Part shown: positions 14,678 through 18,208 of the stretch, in pieces
How positions within the stretch are numbered: position 1 is the first letter of the stretch
Layout of the letters: every line of letters starts with the position of its first letter
Origin: Mycoplasmatales bacterium
GTDB taxonomy: Bacteria; Bacillota_I; Bacilli_A; Mycoplasmatales; G963692675
DNA length: 64,000 nucleotides
Assembly: GCA_963692675.1 (NCBI GenBank)
Contig: OY830043.1
Coordinates: forward strand, 99,008-163,007
Direction of reading: 5' to 3'
Translations under genes and position numbers: made by a program
Notes under the pieces: model-generated
What the model saw: only the letters and a program-made list of their open reading frames with translations
Database searches by the model: none
Told to the model about the DNA's origin: nothing

Positions 14678-17600
14678 TTAAGCTCTTTTTATTGGGTGAA
14701 AGTAAGTTGGTACTTTATCAGGAGTATATCCATACAAACCAAGTGCTTGGTCAATAGATAGTTCTTTTATATTTCAATATCATTGATCATTAAAGTAAAA
14801 TATTAATTCTTCTTGAACAACCGTTCTTAGAAACCGGTAATTACCAATAAAATCCCCATTCTCAGTAACACATCCAGTATTTCTTGTGGGATCATAATTT
14901 AATCCATTTGGATAATTTATACTTGGATAGCTTGAACCTCATTGATGTTCAACTAATTTAACACTTCGACAAACCACTGCTCCTTGGGAATAATTGTTTT
15001 CCTTATCAGGATCATTAAGCATTTCATCTGTTAAAACTTCACTACCTACAATAGTTGGAGTTTGGGTTGGACCTGAAGGAGGTGTTGTAGTGCCACCATT
15101 ATTTCCTCCTCCTGAAGGTGGAGAATAAACATAATCAAATATTGTTTGTCCAGTTTTATAAAGCTTATCTGTTTCTGGTAAATCTTTGTGCATTGTATAT
15201 TGAGCATTCTTTCCTACTCGGTAATCAGCACTCTTTAGACCATCAGAATTCTTAGTTGATTCTTGTAGAGCCTTGTTACATCGATAATAATCACCAGGCA
15301 TGTATACATTAAATGGTCCAGCTTCATATTTAACAAGTTGGCAGGTATTTGAACCATCTCAATTTGCAGTTCATGAAAAATGAGCACTAGTAGAACCATT
15401 ACCATCAAATTGTTTCATATTTATACAAGTATGTTTATAAGAAGGATTATCAAATCATCCTTCTCATACTCCAAGTCATTTGGCAATTGCTATAAAATAA
15501 TCTTTTCTATTTTTTGCTTGAGCAACTTCAGCTGCTCCACCACATTCAACTCCCCCATTAATGATATTTATTGCAACTCCAAATCCTTTTCTAATATTAT
15601 TAGTCTCTACATCCTTTTGGGTAGGTTGTCATCTACCAACAACAGTATCATGAATTGATGGTTTAGGTTCCCGAGGAGTCATATAAAAATACATTGCGCT
15701 TGCTAACGCTAATCAGCCTTCTTCAGCAACTTTTTCTGGATCTCTAAGAAGTACTTCCATTTGTTCCGGACCATACATAACTCTTGAAAAAGGACCATAA
15801 TTATAGTTATAACTCAATTGTTTAGCTCCCCTACCGTGATAGGATTGATCATCAAAACAAGGGAAACCAACATCACCTGTAGCCCCTTCATTACATTGGC
15901 GGTAACCTGTTTTTGTTCCTCGTCTGTCTTTAGTTCATCCTACTTCTGTTATGTGAACTAATCCTTGTTTTCATTGTTCTTGAGGTCAAAGGGCATTAGG
16001 GTTAGCAAATTCAACACCAGGATATTGGGCTTGTGTTCCGACATTTTCGGTATCATGTCCTCCCACTTCCTGAGCAAAATGAGCAAACATGTTTGCAATT
16101 TCTCCTCGACAAACATCCTCTAAAGATAGTTTTTTTAAATCAGGATCATTATCATTTTTCTCAGCACAAAAACGAGGATATTTATGAACAGCAGTTAAAT
16201 AGCCTACATAAGTATATACCTTATTTCTTACTGGTGTTAATTCATTTCATTTTTCTTCAGGAAATACTTTGATTACTCTTAAAACATTTGGAGGAAGAGC
16301 TTCATTATTTTTATTTGATTCATAATCAATTAATCCTTGAGCATTTCTGTTTACTAGCTCTTCTGTATTAGGTTTACCAGCTATAAAATATGATCCAATC
16401 TTATAGGTTTTAATTGTTTCTCATGAACTGGTACTTGCAATTTTTTCAATTTCTTCTTTTCCATAATTAGCAAAAACATCATATATTATTGGGTCACTAG
16501 TTGAATAATCTTGATTTTCACTTGAAATAATTACTGGATCAATTTTAGGTTCTCCTTCAATTGAGGTTTGGGTACCACCATTATCTCCACCATTATCTAA
16601 TCAAGGAGGTGCTTGATATTCTGGAGTGCGGGAAGCAGGATTATATAAGAAAACATTAGAAAATAATTTAGTTGCTTCATCTCTGTGCATTGTATAAGTG
16701 GCATCCTTACCAGCTTTATAATCAGCTCCTCTATTACTGATGGACTTATCAGATTTTCTTGTAGCTTCTCGGCATCGATAATAATCACCTGGTACTAAAG
16801 GAGTATACATTCCTTCTTCTCAAGAATAAAGACGGCACTGGGTGGCATTATTAAAATCCTGACCTCAAGAAGGTTCATAATCATATTTTTGACCTTTCTT
16901 AAAACTTTGCATGTTAATACAATTATTAACATAATTTGATTGATCATATCACCCAGTATAAATACCAAATCACTCAGCAATTCCTTGAAAATAACTTTCG
17001 CGATTTGCTGCAGTTGCTACTGAGGTTCCTTTATTACATTCCAGACCCCCATTTATAATATTAATAGTTACTCCAAAACCCTTCTCTCTTCCTTCCTGTT
17101 TATCAGAATCACTAGGAAGTCATCTGCCAACAACAGTGTCATGAATTGAAGGTTTTGGACTTCTTGGAGTCATATAAAAATACATGGCACTAGCTAATGC
17201 TAGTCATCCTTCATTTGCCACTTTATCTGGATCCTGAAGAAGCACTTCAGCTTGGTCAGGTCCATACATTGCTCTTGAAAAAGGACCATAATTATAATTT
17301 CAACTTAATTGTTTAGCTCCCCGTCCATGATAGGATTTTCCATCAAAACAAGGAAAACCAATATTCCCATTGATGAGATCATCACATTGTCGATAGCCTA
17401 CAGAGTCACCATTGCTATATGCAATTTCAATAAGAAAAAATAATCCTTGTTTTCATTGTTCTTGAGGTCAAATAGCATCAGGATTATTTAAAGTAATATT
17501 ATATTGCTGTGCAGCAATGCTAGCTCTGTCACCTCCAGTTTGATAATGACCACCAACCTCTTGAGCAAAATGAGCAAACATTGTTGAAATTTCTGCTTTG

Positions 17601-18208
17601 CAAACATCTTCTAATGATTTTGATTTTAAAACTGGATCAATATCATTTTTTTCAGCACAAAATCGTGGATATTTATGAACAGCTGTTAAGAAACCAACAT
17701 AGGTGTATTTATCATTTCTTACTGGAGTTAATTCATCAAATTTATTTTCATCAAAGACTTTTATTGCTCTTTTGACATTTAATGGCAAATTAGCAACATT
17801 TTTATTTACATCATAAGTAATTTTATTATTACCATCTCTTTGCAACAATGATTCAGTATTTGGTTTACCTAAATAATGAAATGAACTTACAATATTATTG
17901 CGCATAACATCCCAATTACCAGAAGTTGTTGCCATAACTCATAATTCTTCCTTTCCATAATCAGAAAAGGGATCAAAATTAATTGGATCACTACTGTTAA
18001 AATCAAATAAATCAGTTTTTACTGGAGTTAAGTTTCCTTTCCCTGAAGGAAGTGTGTCTGTTGTTGTAGAAATTTTTTGATTATTATTAGTAAGTGCAAC
18101 AACAATTAATAGTGCAGTACTCACACTAATAAAAAATATCATTAAGCTAAAAGTAATTTTTTGTAATAAGGAGTTATTAGATTTTAATCAAGGAAAAATA
18201 GATCTCAT
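14678..18208 (-). CDS. secreted/membrane-anchored chitinase with two tandem GH19 catalytic modules (1176 aa)
   Basis: ORFs 17939-18142, 17468-17935, 16601-16810 and 14939-15301 are all in one frame. I translated the gaps by hand and found only TGA codons. ATG at 18208 follows an AGGAGG Shine-Dalgarno; TAA at 14678. Each module carries AHFAQEVGGH and the GH19 signature (S/Q)YHGRGAKQLS(W/Y)NYNYGPFS. Confidence 0.85.
15053..16495 (-). repeat. chitinase internal duplication, module 2; approximate bounds
   Basis: The segment SDPIIYDVFANYGKEEI...PGDYYRCNKA...SGPTQTPT is colinear with module 1. Confidence 0.7.
16496..17992 (-). repeat. chitinase internal duplication, module 1 (leader segment + GH19 + PGDYYRC domain); approximate bounds
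   Basis: The protein segment SDPINFDPFSDYGKEEL...PGDYYRCREA...YQAPPW aligns by eye along its whole length with module 2. Confidence 0.7.

Follow-up and report, generated by a model that had tools for sequence, protein, structure and literature searches.

The closest characterised relatives of the enzyme described here are the Vibrio and Aeromonas Bac* chitinases of glycoside hydrolase family 19 (GH19), which were found experimentally to be endo-chitinases and chitosanases (PMC12943478). Here, we analysed a 64,000-nucleotide stretch of contig OY830043.1 (positions 99,008 to 163,007), referred to as the window, in which a gene on the minus strand (14678-18208) encodes a predicted chitinase of 1176 amino acids (aa) with two complete GH19 modules. 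The window chitinase is probably a surface-tethered double endochitinase that would supply N-acetylglucosamine (GlcNAc) to a NagA/NagB route encoded next to it. The GH19 chitinase family is well known, and the tandem layout in a host using genetic code 4 is an architectural variant of it, not a new kind of system.

The Bac* enzymes (ChitVjs of V. jasicida, VP0619, AsChiC and AsChiD) resemble the window chitinase in a core with loops II-V, at about 35-40% identity, and in a ~50-aa C-terminal extension. They differ in having a single catalytic domain accompanied by ChtBD3/CBM5/12 carbohydrate-binding modules (CBMs), in being secreted by Gram-negative bacteria, and in a pre-core region without detectable similarity to the leader that precedes each core of the window chitinase. 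Loop-rich plant class I/II enzymes (barley 2BAA, rice 3IWR, papaya 3CQL) and the ancestral Anc4/Anc5 (8HNE/8X2W) have the same fold and share with it the catalytic Glu pair and the motifs GRG.KQLS.NYNYG and NIINGG.EC, at 28-36% identity. The plant enzymes have about 243 aa, covering about 45% of the 475-aa window module, which adds a leader and a tail, and their two glutamates are separated by about 22 residues, compared with 44 in the window chitinase.

Closer in sequence (core 46-54% identical) are single-module enzymes from Propionigenium maris (L008), Glaciecola sp. (L009) and a Polyangiaceae metagenome-assembled genome (MAG; L007), together with the proteins P0006 and P0007. These have a similar leader-type pre-core region and a C-terminal extension of the form 'CINM...C...PGD(Y/F).(R)C'. 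Unlike the window chitinase, they consist of one module, a linker and 2-3 CBM5/12 repeats, and lack the C-terminal orphan domain described below; P0007 and the P. maris enzyme also begin with a signal-peptide-like sequence in place of the long anchor.

Family GH18 is unrelated to GH19: its fold differs, and its mechanism is retaining. Thermococcus kodakarensis ChiA is a multi-catalytic GH18 chitinase, and both this enzyme and the insect group II/III chitinases keep classical CBMs, unlike the window chitinase. Such multi-catalytic GH18 chitinases carry at least two catalytic domains per chain, which may or may not be synergistic (PMC5786006). Spiroplasma chitinase A is, likewise, the chitinase of a wall-less, code-4, arthropod-associated mollicute, in which GlpO has also been discussed as a virulence factor (PMC4453565), but it belongs to GH18 and has a single catalytic domain. 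For salmonid and fish-gut Mycoplasma, the claim of chitin degradation is founded solely on celABC cellobiose/chitobiose phosphotransferase system (PTS) genes (PMC8121932), and salmon Mycoplasmatales MAGs were reported to be poor in carbohydrate-active enzymes (CAZymes) (bioRxiv 10.1101/2023.12.10.570985).

Results

The window chitinase is encoded by a single gene read with genetic code 4

Translation with table 4 gives one open reading frame (ORF) of 1176 aa followed by TAA, the sole stop, and no TAA or TAG occurs inside the frame across 3528 nt. With table 11, the same frame contains 28 stops, consisting of 27 in-frame TGA codons and the terminator; TGG is used for Trp only once, leaving 27 of the 28 Trp codons as TGA. 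The table-11 fragments end at 15301, 16810, 17935 and 18142, each a multiple of 3 from 18208, and thus lie in one frame. This bears out the original prediction, made from the sequence of the window, that the four fragments are parts of one gene and not two paralogs, interrupted by TGA codons only. The motifs quoted in it (SDPINFDPFSDYGKEEL, AQEVGGH, SYHGRGAKQLSWNYNYG, PGDYYRC, ADYKAGKDATYTMH and GGGNNGGTTTPPSGPTQTPT) are all present in the translation. Genetic code 4 applies throughout the window, whose other ORFs contain 194 in-frame TGA codons versus 27 TGG, and whose ORF stops are TAA (43) and TAG (10).

Orthologues were found in three independent metagenomic assemblies, on contigs L001, L003 and L002, with protein identities to the window chitinase of 91%, 95% and 64%, respectively. 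All three are uninterrupted single ORFs with 22-29 in-frame TGA codons and one terminal stop. A stop codon or frameshift between the modules was looked for in the window gene and in these orthologues, and none was found. An additional protein, P0122 on the short contig ERZ27250252, is 99.9% identical to the window chitinase.

A strong Shine-Dalgarno sequence, AGGAGGAG (18218-18225, minus strand), is read directly 9 nt before the ATG at 18208. Further upstream, the promoter-like sequence TTGAAA-17-TAAAAT (18257-18285, minus strand; 10/12 matches) gives weak evidence for a promoter, as the site count in the region does not exceed the shuffled expectation. The gene has a GC content of 0.333 vs 0.303 +/- 0.033, and its codon usage is the most typical among 22 genes. 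With GC, GC3 and codon usage all typical of the window, a recent horizontal transfer was ruled out, and the gene is not a recent import.

Layout of the protein

All parts of the protein are encoded on the minus strand. The N-terminus (aa 1-65; 18014-18208) consists of a basic start, a ~22-aa hydrophobic segment (aa ~18-40) and a Thr/Asn/Gly spacer. The segment reaches a Kyte-Doolittle peak of 2.6 and is the only hydrophobic segment in the protein, suggesting a signal-anchor that would tether the chitinase to the cell surface. A search of the protein for a lipobox found none, and the first Cys is at aa 184, showing that the chitinase is not a lipoprotein.

Module 1 begins with leader 1 (aa 66-151; 17756-18013), a helical N-terminal extension modelled with a predicted local distance difference test score (pLDDT) of 85-98. 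This is followed by GH19 core 1 (aa 152-436; 16901-17755) and tail 1 (aa 437-537; 16598-16900), which contains PGDYYRC...ADYKAGKDATYTMH and the pair Cys458/Cys479. Linker 1 (aa 538-565; 16514-16597) is an acidic Gly/Asn/Thr stretch with an isoelectric point (pI) of 4.05, lacks aromatic residues and varies between lineages. Module 2 repeats the arrangement with leader 2 (aa 566-648; 16265-16513), paralogous to leader 1, core 2 (aa 649-934; 15407-16264) and tail 2 (aa 935-1030; 15119-15406), containing PGDYYRC...ADYRVGKNAQYTMH and the pair Cys956/Cys977. Judged from translation and composition, linker 2 (aa 1031-1052; 15053-15118) is a Gly/Asn/Thr/Pro stretch, also without aromatics, and it leads to the C-terminal domain (aa 1053-1176; 14681-15052), with two Cys and an aromatic ELIFYFNDQWYWN stretch.

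Module 1 (aa 66-537) and module 2 (aa 566-1030) align over 504 aa with 52% identity (52-55% overall). The two modules are thus complete and have the same three parts each, as had been proposed. Sub-functionalisation by charge was considered and is not evident, the module pI values being 5.4 and 5.7.

Both GH19 cores retain the catalytic residues

The whole protein matches the Pfam GH19 profile PF00182 in two stretches (E 2.8e-65, 220.8 bits). Taken separately, core 1 (130.3 bits, E 1.3e-37) and core 2 (111.9 bits, E 5.2e-32) both lie far over the cutoff of 25.5 bits.

Residue conservation was analysed in an alignment of 58 sequences, comprising the modules of the full-length proteins and 52 homologues, in which 35 columns are invariant. 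Together with two nearly invariant Cys columns, this gave 37 positions, and modules 1 and 2 keep the family residue at 37/37 of them, including both Glu, Ser, Asn, Gln, Lys, Arg and eight Cys per module. E217 (17558-17560) and E714 (16067-16069), the predicted general acids of cores 1 and 2, and E261 (17426-17428) and E755 (15944-15946), the predicted general bases, were assigned by alignment to the GH19 family and are invariant in 58/58 sequences, with the acids placed in FAHFAQEVGGH, which contains the family acid motif (S/A)(H/Q)E(T/V)(S/T/G)G. The substrate-site motifs GRGAKQLS(W/Y)NYNYG and INIINGG(L/V)EC are present in both modules. In HMMER alignments to solved GH19 chitinases (E 1e-43 to 1e-50), E217 falls in the 'SHETSG' acid motif and E261 at the 'EE' base site. 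The aligned sites correspond to Glu67 and Glu89, the established catalytic residues of barley chitinase. Loss of a catalytic Glu from either module, the outcome that would have spoken against two working cores, was not observed.

An AlphaFold2 model of module 1 (mean pLDDT 85.3, predicted template modelling score (pTM) 0.89) adopts the alpha-rich, lysozyme-like GH19 fold; module 2 is 55% identical to module 1. In Foldseek searches, the modelled core matched loop-rich plant-type GH19 structures (E 1e-16, template modelling score (TM) 0.84-0.91, root-mean-square deviation 2.3-3.1 Å), and loopless Streptomyces GH19 more poorly (TM about 0.75). GH19 endolysins gave no significant Foldseek match to module 1 (E >= 0.1), compared with 42 chitinase chains at E <= 1e-5, and PHROG endolysin families match the cores weakly and partially (E 1e-10 to 4e-4). 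These comparisons place the enzyme among the loop-rich GH19 proteins and, by sequence and predicted structure, on the chitinase rather than the endolysin side of the family.

Selection was estimated as dN/dS by the Nei-Gojobori method against close orthologues. Both cores have values of 0.03-0.07 (core 1, 0.03-0.07; core 2, 0.04-0.06), indicating that both catalytic units are maintained by selection. The leaders (0.07-0.21; leader 1, 0.10-0.15; leader 2, 0.07-0.21), the tails (0.09-0.17; tail 2, about 0.10) and the C-terminal domain (0-0.20) also have low values, whereas the anchor region reaches 0.44-0.93, and anchor and linkers evolve far more freely than the structured parts. Both modules are apparently hydrolytically competent.

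The leader and tail are extensions of the GH19 module

Pfam has no match to the leader, the tail or the C-terminal domain, even at E <= 5. Pieces of the protein were compared by BLAST with the 120 best homologues. Counterparts of the first ~50 aa of the tail stand at the C-terminal end of numerous bacterial GH19 enzymes with a single module, with 79 subjects matched by tail 2. The tail cysteines C458/C479 and C956/C977 are conserved in 57/58 aligned sequences. Tail-like motifs occur in the closest relatives, with 'KPGDLAAC' and 'FPGDFERC' in P0006 and P0007, and the enzyme of the Polyangiaceae MAG, with a core 54% identical, contains 'DCINMQSF...DYPPSW...WEEGPF...PGDYYR'.

In the model of module 1, aa 437-485 form a beta-hairpin and a helix with pLDDT 84-89, packed with the rest of the module, while aa 486-540, which hold a conserved ADY(K/R)(A/V)GK.A.YT.H motif, are poorly modelled. 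The high pTM indicates that leader, core and the beginning of the tail pack into a single compact structure, of which known GH19 structures cover only about 45% (TMq 0.45). The second half of the tail was compared with 65 CBM5/12 repeats of the homologues as a possible diverged CBM5/12, and the comparison was not significant (hhalign E 0.14).

For the leader, a profile comparison with the pre-core region of P0007, P0006, P. maris and Glaciecola gave E 5.5e-5 (hhalign, probability 66%), and comparison with the corresponding region of 45 homologues, mostly of the Vibrio type, was not significant (E 0.21). No relative was detected when leader peptides were scanned against 185,579 GTDB species genomes, in which matches from code-4 organisms fragment in tblastn.

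Based on the homology of tail and leader to parts of single-module enzymes and on the compact model, we conclude that leader and tail are inherited extensions, and that the repeated unit is an inherited extended GH19 module of ~470 aa rather than a core flanked by novel binding domains. The original prediction had described the PGDYYRC region as a domain matching no nameable CBM. The absence of a CBM match stands, but the region is not a stand-alone domain of a new kind; its first ~50 aa belong to the C-terminal extension of this bacterial GH19 clade.

The C-terminal domain is an orphan under purifying selection

The C-terminal domain comprises 124 aa after a flexible linker, with 14.5% aromatic residues and one Cys pair. 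Neither Pfam nor PHROG families match it. A HMMER search of its profile against 1.84 billion representative proteins found no homologue outside this chitinase family, the only match being P0255 (182 aa, E 1.4e-44), the end fragment of a chitinase like P0002, a tandem relative. The domain is thus a genuine orphan under purifying selection, and its uniqueness was rightly foreseen. It was also considered as a diverged CBM5/12 (PF02839), and this was rejected on comparison with the 65 CBM5/12 repeats (hhalign E 0.49). An AlphaFold2 model built from 4 sequences was unusable (pLDDT 49.6, pTM 0.32). The position after a linker, where the relatives carry CBM5/12, together with the aromatic richness and the Cys pair, suggests that the domain may bind substrate or a surface.

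One tandem duplication in the ancestor of the window and P0002 lineages

In a neighbour-joining tree of modules, the module-1 copies group together, as do the module-2 copies, and the two groups are sisters, with P0006 and P0007 outside. This topology points to a single tandem duplication before the window and P0002 lineages parted, without later gene conversion. The event is lineage-specific and postdates the split from the single-module relatives P0006 and P0007. Since both outgroups have a single GH19 module, a linker and CBM5/12 repeats, CBM5/12 has been lost from the tandem enzyme, a second module and a new C-terminal domain have been added, and the orphan domain probably replaces the ancestral CBM5/12 repeats. 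P0006 (L006, 27-2087) belongs to a code-4 organism (23 TGA, 1 TGG, 36% GC), and P0007 to a low-GC, standard-code organism. At least two code-4 lineages thus have GH19 chitinases, which gene callers set to the standard code would shatter.

Tandem GH19 architecture was found in only two lineages among the 120 best clusters, and GH19-GH18 fusions are common among the homologue matches. The second lineage is represented by the metagenomic proteins P0003/P0004, from a standard-code organism with 48% GC, in which the duplication is independent of that in the window lineage. These proteins have two GH19 domains like the window chitinase, but no orphan domain, and a third GH19 ORF is adjacent. On L005, P0003 (724-3489) is followed 12 nt on, in another frame, by a 1461-aa ORF (3501-7886) that carries another GH19 module, the third, and several repeated domains rich in Cys; the two ORFs may together be a single giant gene with a frameshift or recoding, or else a three-module GH19 array.

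No tandem-type homologue was found in 185,579 GTDB species genomes. A scan with the core retrieved 269 relatives, the 80 best of which include no Mycoplasmatota; code-4 matches fragment in tblastn and may rank lower. In the GH19 Engineering Database, about seven of 22,461 sequences are two-domain proteins, most of them carrying CBM18 (hevein) domains of the plant type (PMC8547705). Tandem GH19 enzymes are therefore rare, as had been supposed, though the window lineage is not unique in having one.

Gene neighbourhood

On the plus strand, nagA (12837-13949), encoding GlcNAc-6-phosphate deacetylase, scores 232 bits against TIGR00221, above its cutoff of 225.65. It is followed by nagB (13933-14619), encoding glucosamine-6-phosphate deaminase, which matches PF01182 (E 1.5e-16) and nagB models (E 2.5e-58 and 4e-53), the latter below equivalog cutoffs. 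Both genes converge on the chitinase gene across a gap of 58 nt, in agreement with the original prediction. A terminator between the convergent nagB and chitinase genes was looked for and not found.

Upstream of the chitinase gene and on the same strand lie, in order, fpg, glpK-glpO-glpF, a MupG-like gene, PTS IIB and IIA genes, a gene for an unassigned 215-aa protein, a PTS IIC gene and a GH1 gene. The order of the neighbourhood is the same in L001 and L003. The fpg gene (18505-19341) starts with GTG, and an ATG-only ORF call shortens it to 203 aa.

The PTS components are of the Lac/Cel type. IIB (24398-24709) matches PF02302 (E 1.2e-16), and IIA (24743-25102), which starts with GTG and is missed by the ATG-only ORF call, matches PF02255 (E 1.2e-26). 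IIC (26035-28032; 665 aa) matches PF02378, TIGR00410 (E 1.9e-65) and the chitobiose IIC model NF007634 (E 2e-53), with all model matches below equivalog cutoffs. At 665 aa, IIC exceeds the usual length by ~200 aa; the models match two stretches, the best covering residues ~336-560. The pattern is suggestive of a large insertion and of an extended C-terminus containing additional hydrophobic segments.

The MupG-like (DUF871) gene (23153-24283) encodes a predicted phospho-disaccharide hydrolase (PF19200, E 7.9e-53; PF05913, E 1.6e-28) and occupies the same position in L001 and L003. Its product is a candidate for the cleavage of phosphorylated chitobiose. The gene ends the Lac/Cel-type PTS operon, and the organism is expected to be wall-less from its genetic code and genome size. 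The enzyme may act on GlcNAc-6P-GlcNAc rather than on a substrate containing N-acetylmuramic acid (MurNAc), MurNAc-6P-GlcNAc; if true, this would be a new specificity for the family. The GH1 gene (28500-29885) encodes a predicted (6-phospho-)beta-glycosidase (PF00232, E 1.9e-113). Elsewhere in the window, ORFs resembling pfk, gpmI, tpiA and gapdh were recognised by eye from their translation starts, and dhaK/L/M-like ORFs at 33614-35761 were read in the same way.

Several putative surface proteins are also encoded, all on the minus strand. Five tandem paralogous small membrane proteins of two alternating sub-families lie at 54067-57309, where a 238/239-aa pair is 60% identical and proteins of 186-197 aa are 24-40% identical. 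Three more small membrane proteins, one with an extreme Arg/Asp/Pro-rich tail, lie beside nagA (10856-12573). None of the proteins in these two regions has a significant Pfam match. An 889-aa membrane-anchored protein (59696-62365) contains 87-nt and 243-nt tandem repeats (60786-61455). The 243-nt repeat (2.7 copies, 95% match) encodes units of the 'TLLGDVTVGSTTAAADLTVTG' type, and the protein, which has no Pfam match, is possibly a beta-helical surface protein or adhesin with variation in repeat number. A 1011-aa orphan (7523-10558) has a hydrophobic anchor at its N-terminus and lacks Pfam domains; it is conserved in L001 and L003, a few genes past nagA and by the small membrane-protein genes. 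No carbohydrate-related Pfam domain was found in the 1011-aa, 889-aa or small paralogous proteins.

Host organism

The window shows the low GC content (29.3%) and UGA-encoded Trp of the Mycoplasmatota, and contains no rRNA gene. Its source contig of 791,436 bp agrees with the small genomes of that phylum. The best named matches of GpmI (870-2378) are from Erysipelotrichaceae, Mycoplasmatota and Bacilli, at only 52-55% identity, and ribosomal protein L13 (53407-53862) is 55-65% identical to proteins from scattered phyla. The divergence of L13 and GpmI points to a deep, fast-evolving lineage outside the GTDB species representatives searched. The host is best described, from these sequence traits, as a deep-branching, genome-reduced, code-4, Mycoplasmatota-like bacterium.

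Discussion

We favour a reading in which the window chitinase is a ~128-kDa cell-surface endochitinase that feeds GlcNAc into the NagA/NagB route, and consider it probable. In this proposal, the uncleaved N-terminal hydrophobic helix would tether the protein to the membrane, with the two GH19 modules hanging from the anchor on flexible Gly/Asn/Thr linkers and the orphan domain in a distal position. Each module would cut chitin by the GH19 inverting mechanism, with E217 or E714 as general acid and E261 or E755 as general base. The chito-oligosaccharides released would be taken up and phosphorylated by the nearby Lac/Cel-type PTS, and then split by the MupG-like enzyme, the GH1 phospho-glycosidase, or both. 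Finally, NagA and NagB would yield fructose-6-phosphate from the products, to be used by the glycolytic enzymes that the window appears to encode. The route from chitin to fructose-6-phosphate is deduced from gene content.

Several points weigh against this proposal. The matches of PTS IIC and NagB fall below equivalog cutoffs, and for the PTS this means that neither chitobiose specificity nor the identity of the phospho-chitobiose hydrolase can be read from the sequence. In the P0002 lineage, the chitinase gene is not adjacent to nagA/nagB, so the nag-chitinase linkage is not universal. No GlcNAc kinase, GH20/GH3 hexosaminidase or lytic polysaccharide monooxygenase was seen within the 64-kb window. 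Activity, substrate and the contribution of both modules are predicted by homology, and membrane anchoring by hydropathy. The C-terminal domain, for its part, has neither a usable model nor similarity to CBM5/12.

Alternatively, the enzyme could be a colonisation or virulence factor that breaches a chitinous host barrier, such as a peritrophic matrix, a cuticle, or a fungal or parasite wall, with feeding not its main purpose. The mollicute chitinases described to date, such as Spiroplasma ChiA, belong to GH18 and are discussed as virulence factors (PMC4453565; PMC6716498). The glpF-glpO-glpK cluster just upstream is an H2O2-producing system and a classical mollicute virulence determinant, and the unlinked nag genes of the P0002 lineage also fit such a role. 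We nevertheless consider it unlikely to be the principal function, as nagA, recognised at equivalog level, and nagB abut the gene, with a Lac/Cel PTS and phospho-glycosidases nearby. This contrasts with S. poulsonii, for which chitin cleavage was judged unlikely to serve metabolite acquisition, with reference to nagA (PMC4453565). A role in colonisation is compatible with a nutritional one, and the two are not exclusive.

A second alternative is that one module is no longer a hydrolase, and serves as a lectin-like unit for chitin binding or substrate feeding in place of the lost CBM5/12. The single-module enzymes P0006, P0007 and that of Propionigenium have CBM5/12 and the tandem enzyme does not, the modules are just 52-55% identical, and non-synergistic double-domain GH18 chitinases exist (PMC5786006). 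However, both Glu and all 37 positions checked are kept in both modules in all lineages, and dN/dS is equally low for both cores, making a non-catalytic module improbable.

We regard as very improbable that the window enzyme is a peptidoglycan hydrolase of the GH19 lysozyme or endolysin type, which would lyse neighbouring bacteria so that MurNAc-GlcNAc could be salvaged by way of the PTS and the MupG-like enzyme. GH19 does include an endolysin sub-family (PMC8547705), the MupG-like gene in the adjacent PTS operon belongs to the 6-phospho-N-acetylmuramidase family, and the producer, from its mollicute-like nature, would have no wall of its own to damage. Against this, the phage endolysin matches are far weaker than those to class I chitinases (1e-37 and 5e-32) and to solved chitinases (1e-43), the structural comparison likewise returned chitinase chains and no significant endolysin, and no MurQ etherase was seen in the window. 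Lastly, the possibility that adjacent paralogues or a pseudogene were falsely fused by reading TGA as sense, or that the assembly is chimeric, is effectively refuted: the standard code does split the region into many short ORFs, but code 4 is window-wide, no TAA or TAG interrupts the frame, the same single ORF with conserved linkers occurs in four independent assemblies, structured parts throughout are under purifying selection, and no start codon with a Shine-Dalgarno sequence is evident where module 2 begins.

The points of interest of the window chitinase are a tandem GH19 arrangement maintained by selection, an orphan domain, the replacement of CBM5/12 and, for so small a genome, the link to GlcNAc catabolism. 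The locus, with a real chitinase gene beside nagA/nagB in a minimal-genome code-4 bacterium, offers a testable example and a natural experiment on the role of a second catalytic module once the classical chitin-binding modules are lost. The orphan 124-aa domain could define a new binding module. Because standard-code gene callers shatter the gene, such enzymes are missed in metagenomic surveys of CAZymes. We put forward, as a tentative possibility, that the orphan domain is an undescribed chitin-binding module, that a ~0.8-Mb genome relies on this enzyme as its chief means of degrading polysaccharides, and that the lineage is a dedicated chitin-feeding symbiont. If true, this would be the first mollicute-type bacterium with a GH19-based chitinolytic pathway, and would lend concrete support to the so far weakly founded idea that gut Mycoplasma-like bacteria aid chitin digestion in animals.

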